From assembly GCA_963850905.1 (NCBI GenBank), contig CAWKMU010000003.1, positions 1,248,001 through 1,312,000 of the forward strand: a stretch of 64,000 nt of DNA. The letters run 5' to 3'. Position 1 is the first letter of the stretch, and the number at the start of each line of letters is the position of its first letter. The position numbers and the translations under genes are program-made. The stretch comes from an uncultured Gemmatimonadales bacterium (lineage in GTDB: Bacteria; Gemmatimonadota; Gemmatimonadetes; Gemmatimonadales; Gemmatimonadaceae). This document shows, piece after piece, positions 14,551 through 20,542 of this stretch. Under the pieces are notes generated by a model, which saw only the letters and a list, made by a program, of their open reading frames with translations, searched no databases and was not told the DNA's origin.

Positions 14551-16191
14551 TTATAGACCAGACAACAACGCGTCGTTACTCGGGGTCGCCGCAATGCGCT
14601 TGATCAGCCACTCCATGGCCGACTGCGGAGGCATCTGTTGGAGACCACGGCGCAAGGTATAGACGCCGTCGAGTTGGTCCGGTCGGAAGAGCTTGTCCTC
14701 GCGTCGCGTGCCACTCGTGGCGATATCGATCGCAGGATAGATCCGCTTCTCCGCCAGGCTCCGGTCGAGCTTGATCTCGCAGTTACCCGTGCCCTTGAAC
14801 TCTTCGAAGATCACGTCGTCCATCCGCGACCCAGTTTCCACCAGCGCCGTCGCGATGATCGTGAGTGATCCGCCGCCCGCGTTGGGTGCGACCGAGCGGG
14901 CCGAGCCGAAGAATGCCTTGGGCTTGGCCATCGCCGTCGCGTCGAGTCCTCCCGACAGGGTCCGGCCGGTCCCGCGCTCAACGGTGTTGTGGGCACGAGC
15001 CAGACGGGTGATGGAGTCGAGCACGATGACGACGTCCTTGCCCATCTCGACCAGACGGCGGGCACGCTCGAGCACCATCTCCGCGACGTCGGTGTGTCGC
15101 TCGGCCGGCATGTCGAAGCTCGATGCCACCACCTCGCCGTACCCCCACGTGATCATCTCGCTGACTTCTTCAGGACGCTCGTCGACGAGCAGCACGAGCA
15201 GTACTGCGTTCGGATGATTTAGCACGACGCCTTCGGTGATCGCTTGGAGCAGCATCGTCTTGCCCGCACGGGAGGGCGCGACAATCAGCGCACGCTGGCC
15301 GTAGCCGACGGGGGCAATCAAGTCGATCGCCCTGCGGGTCAACTCGGGTCCGGCTTTGGCCGGCCGGCCGGTCTCGAGAGTGAGCTTCCGCTCGGGATAT
15401 GACGCCGTGAGGGCGCTGAAATCGGGGCGTCGGGCCGCGAGTGCCGGATCCTCACCGTTGATCTGAAGGACGTCGACCAGCGTAACGCGCCCACGTTGAT
15501 CCCGACCGACCGTCGCCGATACGGCATCGCCACGTCGCAGCGCGTACTGGCGTACGAGGTGCGTCGGCACATACGGGTCACCGGCCTCGGCGAGGTAGCT
15601 GGCGGATGGACGACGCACATAACCGCCATCGCGCGCGGCATCGAACCATCCCGCCGTCTCGCCGTCCGCGACGATGGGGACCGGTGGCCCATGCTGTTGC
15701 TGCTGCTGGGCGGCATGCTCGCGGTGTGGCCCGCGGCCGCGATGTCGCCGGCTGTTGCGTCCGTGGCCCTGGCGTCGGCCGTTGTTGTGGCCCCCCTGCG
15801 GCATCTGACCGCCGGATCCGCCGCCCTGTGCATTGGGGCGGCCGGGTCCACCGCCATGACGCCTGAATGGGACGCCATCGTTGGATGCGGGAGCTGGCGT
15901 CGTTGGCAGCGACGCGGCGGGGGGTGGGGTCTCGTCGGGCGCACGCGCGGGCGCGCTCTCGTCATTGCTCTGTTCGGCGCCGAACGAGGCGGCGGGTGGA
16001 CTCGTGTCCGGTTCTCGGACACTGTCGGCAACCGGGGCGAGCGACTCACGAGGAGCTGCTATCTCGACTTCTTCGATGGCAGCATCGCGGTACGGATTCG
16101 CCTCGCCGGCCGCATCTGCGAGGGGGTCGGCGGGAGGCCCAAACGGGCGAGGGCCACGGCCGCGACAATGGGGACGTCGGCGTTCGTTCAT
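14551..16191 (-). CDS. rho: Transcription termination factor Rho with long low-complexity N-terminal extension
   Basis: GYGQRALIVAPSRAGKT, LVDERPEEV, DSITRLARAHN, FEEFKGTGN. Confidence 0.96.
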   Translation of the reverse strand: MNERRRPHCRGRGPRPFGPPADPLADAAGEANPYRDAAIEEVEIAAPRESLAPVADSVREPDTSPPAASFGAEQSNDESAPARAPDETPPPAASLPTTPAPASNDGVPFRRHGGGPGRPNAQGGGSGGQMPQGGHNNGRRQGHGRNSRRHRGRGPHREHAAQQQQQHGPPVPIVADGETAGWFDAARDGGYVRRPSASYLAEAGDPYVPTHLVRQYALRRGDAVSATVGRDQRGRVTLVDVLQINGEDPALAARRPDFSALTASYPERKLTLETGRPAKAGPELTRRAIDLIAPVGYGQRALIVAPSRAGKTMLLQAITEGVVLNHPNAVLLVLLVDERPEEVSEMITWGYGEVVASSFDMPAERHTDVAEMVLERARRLVEMGKDVVIVLDSITRLARAHNTVERGTGRTLSGGLDATAMAKPKAFFGSARSVAPNAGGGSLTIIATALVETGSRMDDVIFEEFKGTGNCEIKLDRSLAEKRIYPAIDIATSGTRREDKLFRPDQLDGVYTLRRGLQQMPPQSAMEWLIKRIAATPSNDALLSGL

Positions 16192-16369: not shown

Positions 16370-16630
16370 TCACGTATTGGCCGCGGAACGCGTGGCAACA
16401 TCCATTTGCCGGAGGAGCGCGACCGTCCGCCGGCAGAGGTCGACCATACGCCCGACCGCCGCTTGATGTTCCGGTGCGAGTGGCTCGAGCGCCAACAGCT
16501 GGGCCTCGGCCATCAGCGCCGCCAACGGATTACTGATCTCGTGACGCAACTCGAGTGCGACGGCGCCCACGGCGGCCAATTGCTCCGGCGAGTATTTTTT
16601 TCGTGCACCCAGCTCTCGAGCGTCACCCAT
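16370..16630 (-). CDS. Stand-alone HisKA-like (dimerisation/phosphoacceptor) small protein
   Basis: H-box-like LRHEISNPLAAL; strong GGAGGAGGG SD on minus strand about 10 nt upstream. Confidence 0.7.
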   Translation of the reverse strand: MGDARELGARKKYSPEQLAAVGAVALELRHEISNPLAALMAEAQLLALEPLAPEHQAAVGRMVDLCRRTVALLRQMDVATRSAANT

Positions 16631-17246
16631 GGCTACGCACTCTCCCTCCTCCGATTGGACAGCGCCGATCTCCTTTGAGATCGCGCTTGATGCACTCCTG
16701 CGCGACTATCATGTCACCGGCCACACGGCGGAGCTGCACGCGCGTCTTGCGACACTGATGGACACGGGTACGCCACACGCGTTGATGCTCGCGGCCGAGC
16801 GGTACCGCGACATCCTGGAGATCGCGGGGCCTCTGTACGAACGTGTCGTCGAGAAAGACCCGACCAATGTGCGCGCAATAATCGGGCTCGCCAACGCGTA
16901 TTGGCTCACTGGCCGTGGTCCCGAAGTGGTTGGCGCACTCGCCGATCGGGCCAAAGCTGTCGATCCGCGCAGTCGTGCCGCGTGGCATTTGTGGGCTTTG
17001 ACCGAATCCAACCCCCGCCGTCGAGTCGACCGATGGCGACGCGTGTGTGACGAGTTTTCCGACGACGATCTGGCACGAGCAAACCTCGCTGACAATGCCG
17101 CCAGCCTAGCGGGTGCAGAGGACGACCCCGCTGCACTCCAGCTGGCACTCGAGACGTATGCGGATCTCCGCAGCCGCGCGACGGAGCCGGCCCAAGTTGC
17201 GGCACTGGACCAGGCTCTGGTGACGCTCCGGCAGTGGAAGGTGTGA
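16629..17246 (+). CDS. TPR-like helical hypothetical protein
   Basis: LYERVVEKDPTNVRAIIGLANAYW and AKAVDPRSRAAW TPR-like segments; start uncertain (internal ATG near 16758). Confidence 0.65.
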   Translation: MATHSPSSDWTAPISFEIALDALLRDYHVTGHTAELHARLATLMDTGTPHALMLAAERYRDILEIAGPLYERVVEKDPTNVRAIIGLANAYWLTGRGPEVVGALADRAKAVDPRSRAAWHLWALTESNPRRRVDRWRRVCDEFSDDDLARANLADNAASLAGAEDDPAALQLALETYADLRSRATEPAQVAALDQALVTLRQWKV

Positions 17247-17339: not shown

Positions 17340-17771
17340 CTACGCTGACTCCGATGCTTGCTGACCGGGGCACATCGTCGCCACGGCGGCCAGCACATCC
17401 TCGAGCTTGAATGGTTTGCGCAAGAGCGGGCACTGACAATCGTCAATGAGTGCCTGGGCCCGCTCGGTGACGTCGCCCGTGATGAACAGCGTTTGGCGAC
17501 GCAGGTGCGGCTGTAATGAGACGGCGAGATGGAACAGGACGTCACCGCGCACGTCAGGTATGCGCAGGTCGAGCACGAGTACATCGTAGTGGTCGCCCTG
17601 CAACATCGCGTGCGCGCTCTCGCCCGAATGTGCGGACGCAGCGTCGTAGCCGCCCCGCGAAAGCGCAATGGTGAGCGCGCGGCAGATGGAGGGCTCATCG
17701 TCGACGATGAGCACGCGGCGCCGCTGTGGCAGCGGCAGCGCCCGAATCCAGCCGTTCGACAGTGACTTCAT
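17340..17771 (-). CDS. Single-domain response regulator (receiver)
   Basis: VLIVDDE, VLVLDLRIP, FITG, LRKPF. Confidence 0.88.
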   Translation of the reverse strand: MKSLSNGWIRALPLPQRRRVLIVDDEPSICRALTIALSRGGYDAASAHSGESAHAMLQGDHYDVLVLDLRIPDVRGDVLFHLAVSLQPHLRRQTLFITGDVTERAQALIDDCQCPLLRKPFKLEDVLAAVATMCPGQQASESA

Positions 17772-17865: not shown

Positions 17866-18960
17866 CTACGGCGAGGGTGGCGTCTTCTTCGTCACCCACT
17901 GCGTCGCCGAACCGCTTGCGGCGGGCCGGTTGGCAACCCCCGGATCGGCTCTCCCGGTCGGATCGGTCGGCACTCCGACGACGGCTGCCTCGTCCGGGAC
18001 GACCACCACCGACGGTGGCGCGGCAACCGGCCCATCGCCCCGCCAACCACGGGAGTCTGAGTGGGCGACGAGGCCCACCTCCCTGTCCAGCGCGAGCGCC
18101 GCGCGATTCGCCGCTCGAAATGGTGCGGTCGATGCCAGGCCTACGTCGTCCGCGATGGTCGGCGCGAGCCACTGCGCCAGCGCAGACACCAGCTCCGAGG
18201 GGCGCATCAGCCGGCGGACGGCGCGCGGCGTGGCGCCCACGGCGCCGCGCATATGCTTAGTCAACATGCGGGGTGCGCTATAGCCAACCTTCTTCGCGAT
18301 CGCCTCGAGTGACTGACGCGGGTCCCGGGCGTACGCGTACGCCTGCAGGAGCCGAGCGGCAACGATGACGGCGCGAGGGGAGCGCAGACCCGCTCGCTCC
18401 AGGTGCCGATACGTCGTCCGCACGGTCGCCCGCGCCGCACGAGCGAGGTCCGCGACGTCACGAAACTCGGTTGGTCGCTGCACCAGCCGCTCGATCGCCC
18501 GCGCAAGCGACGGCGGAAGCGTCGCCAGCCTGGGCGCCAGCTCCTCGAGGAGCGCAGCGGTCAAAGACGTGCCCGGTTGACGTTCGAGCAGTTCGAGAAA
18601 GCGGCGCGGCTCGTCATCATAGCGGTGCAGCACGACGTGGTGGACGGCATGATGCGCGCTATGTCGGGCCAGCTCGGCGATCGCTTGAAAGCTCACGGGC
18701 GAGACGGGGGTGTATACCACGACGGGCAGTGTCAGCCGCGACTCGAGCAGGGCCGCCAGAGCCGTGGCGCGACCGACCCCATCTGCACAGGGATCGACGA
18801 CGACGATATCGGCAGCGCCCCGACGAAGCGCATCGGCGAATACGTCCCACCGCTCAATTCCCGTCAGTGAATAGCCGCTATTCCCCGACAGCACCACGCG
18901 GAGGTGCGAGAGCAACGGAGGCGGGAGGTAGGCCAAAACCTCGAGGCTGCCTGGGCGCAC
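17866..18960 (-). CDS. AraC-type HTH regulator with receiver-like N-terminus
   Basis: DVADLARAARATVRTTYRHL and LEAIAKKVGYSAPRMLTKHMR double HTH; DIVVVDP..LPVVVYT receiver-like; GTG 18960 assumed start. Confidence 0.75.
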   Translation of the reverse strand: MRPGSLEVLAYLPPPLLSHLRVVLSGNSGYSLTGIERWDVFADALRRGAADIVVVDPCADGVGRATALAALLESRLTLPVVVYTPVSPVSFQAIAELARHSAHHAVHHVVLHRYDDEPRRFLELLERQPGTSLTAALLEELAPRLATLPPSLARAIERLVQRPTEFRDVADLARAARATVRTTYRHLERAGLRSPRAVIVAARLLQAYAYARDPRQSLEAIAKKVGYSAPRMLTKHMRGAVGATPRAVRRLMRPSELVSALAQWLAPTIADDVGLASTAPFRAANRAALALDREVGLVAHSDSRGWRGDGPVAAPPSVVVVPDEAAVVGVPTDPTGRADPGVANRPAASGSATQWVTKKTPPSP

Positions 18961-19079
18961 TGGCAAGAATATGTACGATCCTGGCAGAAAATGCACCTTT
19001 TGGCCGTCCCAAGGGAACATACGTTCTTCTCGTTACTGCAGCGCTCGCATCACTCATCCCCCTGCTAGCGGAGGAGAGC

Positions 19080-19199
19080 ATGTCCCGCCGTATCACCATC
19101 GCTGTGTTGACCGTGCTCGCTGCGGCCATGGCCGCGTGCGCATCGCCGACAGCGCCCGCGAATGTTTGCCGGCCGGGCGTCACGGTCGGACCCTGCTGA
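19080..19199 (+). CDS. 39-aa small lipoprotein/lipopeptide precursor MSRRITIAVLTVLAAAMAAC-ASPTAPANVCRPGVTVGPC
   Basis: GGAGGAG SD just upstream, basic N-terminus, hydrophobic h-region, lipobox MAAC, downstream terminator. Confidence 0.75.
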   Translation: MSRRITIAVLTVLAAAMAACASPTAPANVCRPGVTVGPC

Positions 19200-19237
19200 T
19201 CGACGGCTCGACGGGACCCGTCGGGCGCTTTGGTCAC

Positions 19238-19277
19238 AAAAAGAAGCCGGGGAACCACTGTGGTTCCTCGGCTTTTG
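19238..19277. terminator. Bidirectional intrinsic terminator
   Basis: aagccggggaacca-ctg-tggttcctcggctt flanked by A-run and T-run between convergent genes. Confidence 0.8.
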
Positions 19278-19306
19278 GGCTTATGGGGCAGTCGGCGTCG
19301 CCGTCG

Positions 19307-20542
19307 CTATAGGGCCGCCAACTCGCGCATCGCGGCGACCGCATCGACAATGTCTCGAATAGCTGGTACGTCTCGAGGCGTCCGTCGCTGAGCGGCGAGG
19401 CGTTGCGCCACCGCGTGCTTGAGATCCTCGGTCTGAAATAGCAGTTGGTTCAATGCGTGGCGCTCGGCCAGCTCGACCGCGCGCGTGAGCGAGTTCCCGG
19501 CCTCCGCGTATTTCCCAAATGCACAATGCGCGAGTGCCGAGTGGTAGTGATACTGCGCGCGCAGATACGGCGGCAGCGCCTCGTCCAATAGCTCGAAGCG
19601 ATAGCGATCCACGAGCGGCTCGTTCATCTGCAGAGCGCCGACCTCCATCAAGTTGATCATCGCTGCCCAGCGGACATACTGCTCGGCGCCCGTCGCTGCC
19701 ACGATCAGGAACGCATCGCGGGCCGCGTCGAGGGCTCCGAGCTGTGTCAACGCCGTCGCGAGGTCGCTCAAGATGCGGTCGCGAGAGCACAAGCTGTGCG
19801 TCAACCGGAGCGCGTCGTATAGGTGACGCGCGGCCGCCTCGTGCTGACCCCGGGCAATCGCCACGACGGCACGCCCGTGCCGCGCAATCGACCCGACATC
19901 ATCGAAGCCCTTCGCGGTCGCTGCCTCGATCGCTTCGTCAAGGATGGATTCTGCCAGCGGCAGATTGCCGCGCGCCAGAGCCAACGTTCCCTCGCCGACG
20001 CGGGCGTGCAGCACCTTCACGGGATCGCCGGCCGCCGTTCCCGTTCGCTTGGCACGATCGTATGACGAGGCCGCTTCGTCGAAGCGGCCAATCACTCGGT
20101 AGCAATGCGCGAGACGCATCCGCGCGTCGATCACCAGGTGCGGATCGAGCGTCGTCGGCGTGTGCCGGAGCGTGCTTTCGTACACGTCGATCGCCTGCGG
20201 CCAACGTGCGTCGTGATCCAGGCATCGACCGTACGCCATCAGTCGAGGCGCAAGTGGTCGGATATCGGGCGTGTGCGCGCTTTCGACGGTGTCGACAATG
20301 CTGGTCAGGATCGACCGCGCGGCCTGGTCACGCGGGATGGTGTCGATTGCGCCGCGCACGCCCTGGATGCCCCACACCGACACCTGCGGCGCTTCCGACC
20401 CCTCGCTGAGCCACCCATCGACCATCCGCAGCACCATGAGCCCAGCACTGGTCGCCGGCCACTCCGCGTCTGTCTCGGAGAGGCCCCCCAGCGCCTCGAA
20501 AAAGGCGGCGTGTCGCAGTCTGCCGGATGGTCGCTCGATCAC
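19307..20542 (-). CDS. Tetratricopeptide-repeat protein
   Basis: Serial TPR-like helices (LAHCYRVIGRFDEAASSYDRA; LAHCAFGKYAEAGNSLTRA); AGGTGAGG SD before GTG. Confidence 0.8.
   Translation of the reverse strand: MIERPSGRLRHAAFFEALGGLSETDAEWPATSAGLMVLRMVDGWLSEGSEAPQVSVWGIQGVRGAIDTIPRDQAARSILTSIVDTVESAHTPDIRPLAPRLMAYGRCLDHDARWPQAIDVYESTLRHTPTTLDPHLVIDARMRLAHCYRVIGRFDEAASSYDRAKRTGTAAGDPVKVLHARVGEGTLALARGNLPLAESILDEAIEAATAKGFDDVGSIARHGRAVVAIARGQHEAAARHLYDALRLTHSLCSRDRILSDLATALTQLGALDAARDAFLIVAATGAEQYVRWAAMINLMEVGALQMNEPLVDRYRFELLDEALPPYLRAQYHYHSALAHCAFGKYAEAGNSLTRAVELAERHALNQLLFQTEDLKHAVAQRLAAQRRTPRDVPAIRDIVDAVAAMRELAAL

Follow-up and report, generated by a model that had tools for sequence, protein, structure and literature searches.

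Peptide signaling through cytoplasmic tetratricopeptide repeat (TPR) receptors has been described for Bacillota and their mobile elements. The closest described counterparts of the system treated here are the Rap-Phr pairs of Bacillus, plasmids, and phages. We analyzed a 64,000-nucleotide stretch of DNA (the window) from an uncultured Gemmatimonadales bacterium (metagenome-assembled genome, assembly GCA_963850905.1, contig CAWKMU010000003.1, positions 1,248,001 to 1,312,000), in which a small gene for a putative lipopeptide lies between the genes for a TPR protein and an AraC-type regulator. The original prediction, made from the letters of the window, proposed an RRNPP/Rap-Phr-like system that uses a lipidated peptide in a diderm bacterium. 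Gene linkage, paired cysteines, co-variation, and docking support that proposal, without sequence-level kinship to RRNPP receptors. In our best reading, the cassette works like Rap-Phr but is not a sequence-level member of RRNPP.

The resemblance to Rap-Phr extends to several parts of the system. Both have a TPR protein of about 360 to 410 residues that lacks a helix-turn-helix (HTH) domain, and the fold found here aligns to Rap structures. Both have a short exported pro-peptide, encoded next door, whose C-terminal part is the ligand (here by prediction), and both occur as several diverged cassettes per genome. The likely target is in each case a regulator with a receiver fold. Rap proteins bind ComA. 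A Rap protein is bound to Spo0F in entry 3q15. In contrast to Rap-Phr, the cassette belongs to a diderm phylum, and its proteins show no sequence-level kinship to that system. The peptide gene is convergent with the receptor gene, whereas phr lies downstream in a single operon. Its signal has a lipobox and would be cut by signal peptidase II rather than signal peptidase I, and its tail is usually a putative disulfide loop of 7 to 11 residues. Finally, the cassette carries the gene for its own likely target, in which an apparent pseudo-receiver is joined to an AraC domain.

NprR-NprX and PlcR-PapR also place a peptide in the TPR groove of a cytoplasmic receptor, as predicted here, and derive it from an exported pro-peptide; NprR is among the best structural matches to the TPR protein of the window. 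In PlcR-PapR, the signal activates its own gene. Those receptors carry an HTH domain of their own, whereas DNA binding here falls to a separate AraC-type protein; sequence homology is absent, and the pro-peptide of the window would be lipidated. Enterococcal sex pheromones are cut from lipoprotein signal peptides and sensed by a cytoplasmic RRNPP receptor. As proposed for the cassette, a lipoprotein precursor is the source of a peptide for a cytoplasmic TPR-type receptor, but the pheromone is the signal peptide, whereas the ligand predicted here is the mature C-terminal tail.

Three genes form one conserved, repeatedly duplicated unit

In the window, the TPR gene is convergent with the peptide gene and the AraC gene is divergent from it. 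The features of the cassette, in window positions, are as follows.

19080 to 19199, plus strand: pre-pro-lipopeptide gene, 39 codons and stop (signal peptide 19080 to 19136, putative lipobox Cys20 at 19137 to 19139, SPTAP motif, Cys30-x8-Cys39 tail)
19170 to 19196, plus strand: peptide tail, residues 31 to 39 (RPGVTVGPC), predicted ligand of the TPR groove from the complex-model interface and co-variation with groove columns
19307 to 20542, minus strand: cytoplasmic, all-helical TPR protein of 411 residues, candidate receptor of the peptide tail (TPR families, model, fold matches)
17866 to 18960, minus strand: regulator with a receiver-like N-terminal domain, a long helix, and an AraC-type HTH, 364 residues from GTG 18960 (HTH_18, model, Foldseek)
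18961 to 18976, plus strand: distal direct-repeat copy TGGCAAGAATATGTAC, candidate AraC operator, abutting the AraC start codon (conserved columns in 21 upstream regions)
18982 to 18996, plus strand: proximal direct-repeat copy TGGCAGAAAATGCAC, 23 nucleotides upstream of TAnnTT (alignment of the 21 upstream regions)
19020 to 19025, plus strand: TAnnTT, a -10-like box (TACGTT), conserved in the alignment of upstream regions
19070 to 19076, plus strand: Shine-Dalgarno sequence GGAGGAG of the peptide gene (GAGG-type motif 5 to 9 nucleotides before the ATG in 20 orthologues)
19242 to 19276, no strand assigned: 16-bp GC-rich hairpin, likely two-way terminator (minimum free energy -52.9 kcal/mol; z -5.05 on the plus strand and -3.10 on the minus strand)

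The original prediction had singled out a 39-codon gene with a strong Shine-Dalgarno sequence and a lipobox, buried in a junk open reading frame (ORF). The ATG at 19080 opens 39 codons encoding MSRRITIAVLTVLAAAMAACASPTAPANVCRPGVTVGPC, with the stop at 19197 to 19199, GGAGGAG upstream, and the lipobox sequence MAAC; this gene is the end of a larger open frame of 242 residues (18471 to 19199). Cleavage before Cys20 would split the product into MSRRITIAVLTVLAAAMAAC and ASPTAPANVCRPGVTVGPC. It would leave the 20-residue mature peptide that had been proposed, in which Cys30 and Cys39 enclose eight residues and could form a disulfide loop. We found the TPR protein in 31 of 41 related genomes searched. 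All 20 loci returned from that search have a small ORF at the same place, between the 3' end of the TPR gene and the 5' end of the AraC gene, and the ATG follows a GAGG-type Shine-Dalgarno motif in each of these first 20 orthologues. Across 63 peptide-gene pairs, the pooled ratio of nonsynonymous to synonymous change (pN/pS) was 0.23 in frame versus 1.95 and 1.88 in the other two frames, and by part it was 0.28 for the signal and 0.21 for the mature peptide. The ORF, for which the original prediction had made conservation decisive, is thus conserved in related loci, and it is a real gene under purifying selection. By exact look-up, the window's own peptide matches no called protein in the public collection, and related peptides are named only "hypothetical protein." Candidate peptide paralogues within the same genome were rejected as weak matches (E of 0.07 or more); one of them, at L124, adjoins a short TPR paralogue without an AraC gene or a lipobox ORF.

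We then measured linkage by a scan that does not depend on peptide homology, accepting any ORF of 25 to 75 residues with a signal peptide and a lipobox on the strand opposite the TPR gene, from -60 to +700 nucleotides of the TPR end. A 9-row TPR alignment yielded 80 further loci in public genomes, of which 10 had too little downstream DNA. A small lipobox ORF was present downstream of the TPR homologue in 68 of the 70 testable windows, compared with 17 of 2,000 random 760-nucleotide windows of the same genome. The exceptions were L030, in which the lipobox Cys is replaced by Ser, and L043, in which the AraC and peptide genes are missing together. The TPR family occurred in 123 of 301 sampled Gemmatimonadota genomes, with family samples f1 (41 of 69), f2 (72 of 125), f4 (3 of 6), f5 (1 of 1), f7 (4 of 47), and f8 (1 of 4); within this sample it was not found in the other six families. 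Of the 45 further loci from these genomes, 44 were testable (L151 ends at the TPR gene) and 42 had a convergent peptide, the exceptions being L171 and L175. The gene trio is kept in loci from other families of the class; L158 differs in having its AraC gene upstream of the TPR gene rather than in the usual position.

The same genomes also hold TPR paralogues with 30 to 37% identity, and we examined 20 such places. Each of the 18 full-length copies is accompanied by a separate small lipobox ORF, placed convergently as in the window (one was assigned by eye, a Gln in the hydrophobic core having broken the scan pattern), and 17 have their own AraC gene; the contig of the 18th ends before the AraC position. 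The remaining two are short TPR genes (276 to 282 residues) with neither an AraC gene nor a peptide ORF. A genome can hold up to four cassettes, as G008 and G009 do. When all ORFs of 20 orthologous and paralogous loci were compared, the TPR and AraC proteins were the only clusters common to all, and no gene for a protease, a transporter, or a modifying enzyme was shared among these 20 loci. The three genes are one conserved, repeatedly duplicated unit. The small lipobox ORFs that had been expected beside TPR homologues were therefore found in every set examined (20 of 20, 68 of 70, 42 of 44, and 18 of 18 paralogous copies).

Some individual loci depart from the common layout. In L043, the TPR gene abuts a homologue of the window's TPR_19 gene (16629 to 17246), and a single block comprising the AraC, peptide, and receiver genes has been lost. 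L003 (genome G001) has an AraC orthologue with an in-frame stop at residue 133 (LH-stop-YDD versus LHRYDD in the window), which is either a pseudogene or an assembly error; its peptide and TPR genes are intact. Among paralogous loci, a second AraC gene stands on the other side of the TPR gene in L122, L126, and L127, and L140 has two TPR genes in tandem, which suggests back-to-back or nested cassettes. L094 comes from a record titled "uncultured Actinomycetota bacterium" and carries a typical Gemmatimonadaceae-type cassette with a peptide nearly identical to that of L049; the label is probably a binning or labeling problem rather than a sign of transfer. Among unpublished genomes, G016 supplies a row in alignments A1, A2, and A4 and is included in the tallies, and G086, G205, and G124 enter the tallies only; no claim depends on them.

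The peptides share a common anatomy, which we described from 84 unique sequences. Residue -1 to the lipobox Cys is Ala in all 84, -2 is Ala, Ser, or Thr in 82, and -3 is Leu, Val, Ala, Ile, Met, or Thr in 82. Judged by the pattern [LVI][ASTVI][GAS]C together with Lgt and LspA in the genome, the window's MAAC was counted as a lipobox; the genome encodes both enzymes over the cutoff (three matches for LspA, two for Lgt), and the peptide is presumably lipidated. Positions +2 to +7 read [SAT][SDN][PAV]T[AG]P, with Pro at +7 in 82 of 84. This SPTAP-like motif is followed by a variable linker rich in Ala, Ser, Thr, and Pro and then by a Gly-rich C-terminal tail of the type (C)G-V-x-x-G-S-G-x-(C), for a mature length of 20 to 40 residues (median, 26). 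We rejected the possibility that the motif, as C-x2-4-T[AG]P, is a general lipoprotein feature; only 7 of the genome's 226 long lipobox ORFs contain it. Besides the lipobox Cys, exactly two further Cys residues are present in 68 of the 84 peptides, none in 16, and never one or three, in keeping with the expectation of paired Cys in these small ORFs; the pair encloses 7 to 11 residues. An intramolecular disulfide predicts an even number, and this pattern implies selection on the form of the peptide outside the cytoplasm. In the G002 lineage (L004 and L030), the signal peptide and the Cys pair are kept and the lipobox Cys is Ser (…AAVVASISPAA…), so this lineage would make a nonlipidated secreted peptide.

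Short, disulfide-closed, fast-diverging exported peptides with private regulators could also be antimicrobials. Under that explanation, the product would be a ribosomally made, bacteriocin-like antimicrobial or competition peptide stabilized by its disulfide, and the TPR protein would be a binding or immunity factor on the producer side. We consider this very improbable. The 20 compared loci contain no modification enzyme, dedicated exporter, or membrane immunity gene in the cassette, a lipobox is not a bacteriocin leader, and to our knowledge a cytoplasmic TPR protein is not a known type of immunity factor.

The TPR groove and the peptide tail

The neighbor that had been called a 411-residue all-TPR protein matched TPR_12 and other TPR families in Pfam. 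Its 20 orthologues align from a conserved N-terminus and lack a signal peptide, and its model is all helical, with 20 helices and a predicted local distance difference test score (pLDDT) of 91.5. Structural matches included LGN (Z 24.1), NprR (5dbk, Z 22.8, root mean square deviation [rmsd] 5.5 over 293 aligned residues; 4gpk, Z 19.7), and MalT domain III (Z 20.5). Rap structures solved with peptides matched as well (6t46, Z 21.9; 8rte, 21.6; 4gyo, 20.7; 4i9c, 20.1), and the match to Rap of pLS20 had Z 21.9 and rmsd 8.2 over 325 aligned residues. Because these Z values are effectively tied, the fold says "peptide-binding TPR" and no more. The TPR domain of the eukaryotic protein LGN/Pins, which was the best match by both fold and profile, is a superhelix that holds extended peptides in its inner channel; LGN/Pins is a spindle-orientation scaffold without functional relation to the cassette, and the match shows a peptide-holding fold only. 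An NCBIfam search of the TPR protein gave nothing over the cutoff, and public databases name the family only as hypothetical or TPR protein.

We predicted a three-chain complex in which the peptide precursor was scored as the partner and the TPR protein and the regulator made up the other two chains. The complex scored 0.63 (runs of 0.60, 0.63, and 0.69), versus 0.00 for the best of three controls, and contacts agreed between runs to at least 52%. The mark against which we read this score is reached by 116 of 157 solved complexes and 2 of 215 mismatched pairs, a calibration that is rough for a prediction with its own alignments and three chains. In the model, the confident interface consists of the last nine residues of the peptide (31 to 39, RPGVTVGPC) against the TPR groove, so that the multimer modeling suggested by the original prediction places the tail in the groove; the interface list of the three-chain prediction contains no regulator contacts. 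The predicted groove contacts are residues 146, 182, 186, 218 to 230, 244 to 267, 287 to 300, and 327 to 334. Across 76 unique TPR sequences, these columns are bimodal. N297 (76 of 76) and R256 (74 of 76) are conserved, along with A220, A244, D260, H222, E287, and E300, and positions 226, 229, 230, 252, 266, 293, and 330 are hypervariable. In RRNPP receptors, a conserved Asn clamps the backbone of the peptide.

Co-variation between the TPR protein and the peptide had been named as a check on the idea. For 75 TPR/peptide pairs, we set pairwise distances computed from the final 12 residues of the peptide against those computed from the 31 predicted contact columns. Tail distances correlated with contact-column distances at r = 0.60 and with noncontact columns at r = 0.40. 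The partial correlation, conditioned on the noncontact columns, was 0.50, a value reached by 0 of 2,000 permutations. Nor was the observed value reached by pseudo-contact sets of 31 columns, whether drawn at random (0 of 200; maximum, 0.273) or matched for entropy (0 of 300; maximum, 0.245). Setting the tail length to 9, 12, or 15 residues did not change this outcome, nor did restricting the pairs to the orthologous block (n = 58, r = 0.50, 0 of 200). For the signal peptide, used as a control, r was -0.05; its distances do not track the groove.

These results bear on another explanation, in which the gene encodes an ordinary regulated envelope lipopeptide with a structural, protective, or metal-binding role and the TPR protein, perhaps a cofactor of the regulator, never touches it. 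AraC regulators commonly control a divergently transcribed gene, and small lipoproteins with 20 to 40 mature residues, such as the entericidins, exist in diderm bacteria. A docking score is also the model's own confidence, given here for a partner of uncertain fold, and the contact columns are on average not more conserved than the rest. Nevertheless, we regard this explanation as quite unlikely. Tail distances track the 31 groove columns and neither the matched columns nor the signal peptide, and a private TPR and AraC pair for each duplicated peptide would be left unexplained.

The regulator and its candidate operator

The divergent gene had been described as an AraC-like regulator with a receiver-like part, and both halves of this description hold. 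HTH_18 matched residues 192 to 270 of the long ORF at 38.7 bits (cutoff, 33.6), which identifies an AraC-type HTH, and the DNA-binding domain of AdpA was among the fold matches. The model (pLDDT 84.2) has a disordered segment (1 to 23), a (beta-alpha)5 receiver-like domain (26 to 131), a long helix (138 to 165), and the HTH region (170 to 285). The top Foldseek matches of the N-terminal domain were the receivers of FixJ, PorX, RcsB, and NarL, and Pfam Response_reg gave no match to this domain. D76, P77, and Y103 are invariant in our alignment. Neither the acidic pair after beta1 nor the conserved Lys after beta5 appears in it, with positions assigned by eye from the strands of the model. On our own reading of the alignment, the domain looks like a pseudo-receiver.

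The regulator ORF stays open further upstream, to an ATG at 19020. Homologues begin at about residue 21 to 26 of this long ORF, L005 has a stop upstream of that point, and in the aligned upstream regions the start is a GTG at 18960. Because the regulator starts at GTG 18960 and not at ATG 19020, the divergent space is 119 nucleotides, in agreement with the roughly 120 bp of shared promoter space first proposed. Across 21 aligned loci, this space contains two direct copies of TGKCA-N1-2-AAAATGCAC, 20 to 21 bp apart, followed by the TAnnTT box and the ribosome-binding site. AraC-family sites are usually arranged as tandem direct repeats beside the -35 region. The paralogue groups differ in their repeats but share the location: in 20 of 25 loci the best repeat falls between -104 and -124, and in 10 of the 25 no more than 4 of 200 shuffles were as good. 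From these alignments, we infer that the regulator may bind the direct repeat. The exact proximal 15-mer is unique in the 4.49-Mb genome. Allowing two mismatches to TGGCA-N1-2-AAAATGCAC, we counted 29 sites in the genome, namely the window's distal copy and 28 others, including G000 C3:1683180, C3:743229, C3:3553330, and C3:2859049; these are possible further targets of the regulator.

At the other end of the peptide gene, the proposed bidirectional terminator is likely. The 16-bp hairpin at 19242 to 19276, between the convergent peptide and TPR genes, is significant on both strands when folded against shuffled sequences and has an A-run before the stem and a short U-run after it. A consensus promoter and terminator scan of 18800 to 19500 called neither element; it missed the hairpin because only four T residues follow the stem.

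Several genes flank the cassette on the regulator's side. Downstream of the AraC gene lies a stand-alone response-regulator receiver, for which homologues occurred in 7 of the 20 compared loci, all in the orthologous block and none in the paralogous cassettes.

17340 to 17771, minus strand: stand-alone response-regulator receiver (Pfam Response_reg, 53.6 bits)

Near this receiver and a 205-residue TPR_19-like protein (16629 to 17246) is an ORF of 86 residues (16370 to 16630, minus strand) with only a HisKA dimerization and phospho-acceptor domain (30.3 bits; cutoff, 26.9) and no ATPase domain, which could be a phosphotransfer or kinase-inhibitor mini-protein. The Rho termination factor encoded at 14551 to 16191 (minus strand) has an Arg/Gly/Pro-rich low-complexity N-terminal extension of about 180 residues before its RNA-binding domain.

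Candidate functions of the cassette

We hypothesize that the three genes make up a peptide-receptor regulatory cassette of Gemmatimonadota with Rap-Phr-like logic, comprising export, lipid anchoring, disulfide formation, release, uptake, and binding, although we judge this full sequence of steps slightly more apt to be wrong than right. The pre-pro-peptide would be exported, and Lgt and LspA would lipidate and cleave it at Cys20 to give a membrane-tethered pro-peptide. This pro-peptide would consist of the conserved SPTAP stretch, the variable linker, and the Gly-rich tail, which would usually be closed by a disulfide outside the cytoplasm. The tail would then be released, re-enter the cell (an Opp-type importer being the obvious candidate), and bind the concave groove of the cytoplasmic TPR protein. 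Binding would alter the action of the TPR protein on the neighboring pseudo-receiver/AraC regulator, an action to which one observation points, the conserved adjacency of the receiver-AraC gene. The regulator, in turn, would bind the 20- to 21-bp direct repeat beside the peptide promoter and so provide feedback on its own signal. We infer lipidation, disulfide closure, release, reimport, contact between the TPR protein and the regulator, operator binding, and population-level signaling from the layout and conservation of the parts.

We favor this Rap-Phr-like version because selection acts on the exported form (the lipobox, the SPTAP motif, and the parity of Cys residues), because tails diverge together with their private receptors, because a genome can hold several cassettes without an effector gene, and because tails are repeated in two lineages. 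The repeats are found in two f7 loci (L160 and L161) as HSPDPG twice and HTIGSGN three times. Such repeats would be understandable if the tail is excised as a unit, and they hint at processing. The TPR proteins of L160 and L161 are 606 to 614 residues long, with an N-terminal extension of about 200 residues that has no Pfam match. The genome encodes one Opp-type binding protein, and such a protein is present in all cassette-holding families and in each of the four f7 genomes with a cassette. An extended form of the proposal holds that Gemmatimonadota communicate by peptide pheromones whose origin is independent of the Gram-positive RRNPP systems. A lipid-anchored pro-peptide displayed on the envelope would lose its disulfide-closed tail, which would diffuse from cell to cell, be taken up, and be read by a private cytoplasmic TPR receptor that controls the pseudo-receiver/AraC regulator, giving up to four insulated channels per genome with their own operators. 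We would sooner expect this form to fail than to hold.

A number of observations weigh against Rap-Phr-like signaling. With the TPR protein in the cytoplasm and the peptide exported and probably lipid anchored, the ligand has to be freed from its anchor and then pass through two membranes, and none of the 20 compared loci has a protease or transporter gene in the cassette. Opp-type binding proteins are nearly universal in the phylum (268 of 301 genomes), so their presence says little and neither helps nor hurts the proposal. Sixteen of the 84 peptides lack the Cys pair, and one lineage (G002) has Ser for the lipobox Cys. Sequence kinship to RRNPP receptors did not appear in Pfam, which gave generic TPR families only (TPR_MalT reached 33.6 bits, below its cutoff of 45), or in a profile search against the PDB, where RapJ had E = 0.033 and LGN had E = 1.7e-8. 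In the predicted complex, the peptide had a pLDDT of about 46, which leaves its own fold uncertain. The docking pass may partly reflect likeness to TPR-peptide complexes, which are common in the PDB, and the controls included neither a noncognate peptide nor an unrelated TPR protein. Contact columns were no more conserved than the remainder (mean entropy, 1.96 versus 1.84; one-sided P = 0.77). Among the 17 paralogous loci alone, co-variation vanished (r = -0.007; 140 of 200 controls equaled or exceeded it). Because related genomes are not independent samples, the permutation counts make the support look stronger than it is; the matched-column control is subject to the same relatedness, yet its values stay far below the observed one. 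Lastly, the direct repeats were not significant in groups B and D when tested against shuffles.

Some of these difficulties disappear if the peptide is never reimported. The TPR protein could bind the tail of the precursor before export and, once the precursor has left, be freed to act on the regulator, so that the circuit would gauge its own export flux or hold the level of an envelope lipopeptide steady. All three partners would meet in the cytoplasm, no release or import step would be needed, and the 20 compared loci have no transporter or protease gene in the cassette. A pre-peptide of 39 to 66 residues must leave the ribosome before it is exported, and docking and co-variation fit such partner switching equally well. 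A TPR protein, an AraC-type activator, and a secreted substrate also form an established trio in type III secretion, represented by IpgC-MxiE and SicA-InvF, in which the secreted protein is bound before export; MxiE, IpgC, and the TPR fold of IpgC are described in PMC3299695 and PMC10701871. Those chaperones, however, work with a type III apparatus and contain about 3.5 TPR motifs, whereas the protein of the window has 411 residues and about 20 helices, scores 22.9 bits against the SycD/LcrH chaperone model TIGR02552 (cutoff, 104.8), and so does not classify as a class II chaperone; export here would use Sec and the lipoprotein pathway. Furthermore, Cys parity and the SPTAP motif show selection on the exported form, for which partner switching would need a further function outside the cell. 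Several diverged cassettes per genome without an effector gene are more typical of signaling channels, and the tail repeats of two lineages point to the release of several units. We therefore think partner switching without reimport unlikely, though far from negligible.

The original prediction did not recognize the system as one already described, and our searches agree. In literature on Gemmatimonadota lipoproteins and AraC regulators, Gram-negative RRNPP systems, and peptide quorum sensing in Gemmatimonadota, we found no description of the cassette among the papers listed, and none of those on RRNPP systems dealt with diderm bacteria. In the main text of the RRNPP survey PMC10075063, "Gemmatimonad" and "lipoprotein" occur 0 times, and according to its introduction, Pseudomonadota and Actinomycetota signal with small molecules and Bacillota with peptides. 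If Rap-Phr-like signaling is correct, peptide communication of this kind would reach across the Gram divide into a diderm soil phylum that is widespread and poorly studied, and the lipidated pro-peptide would be a new way to stage a signal. The family would also offer dozens of natural peptide-receptor pairs for studying the evolution of specificity. Because cultured Gemmatimonas relatives carry the cassette (locus L097 is from a record titled Gemmatimonas phototrophica), the idea is directly testable.

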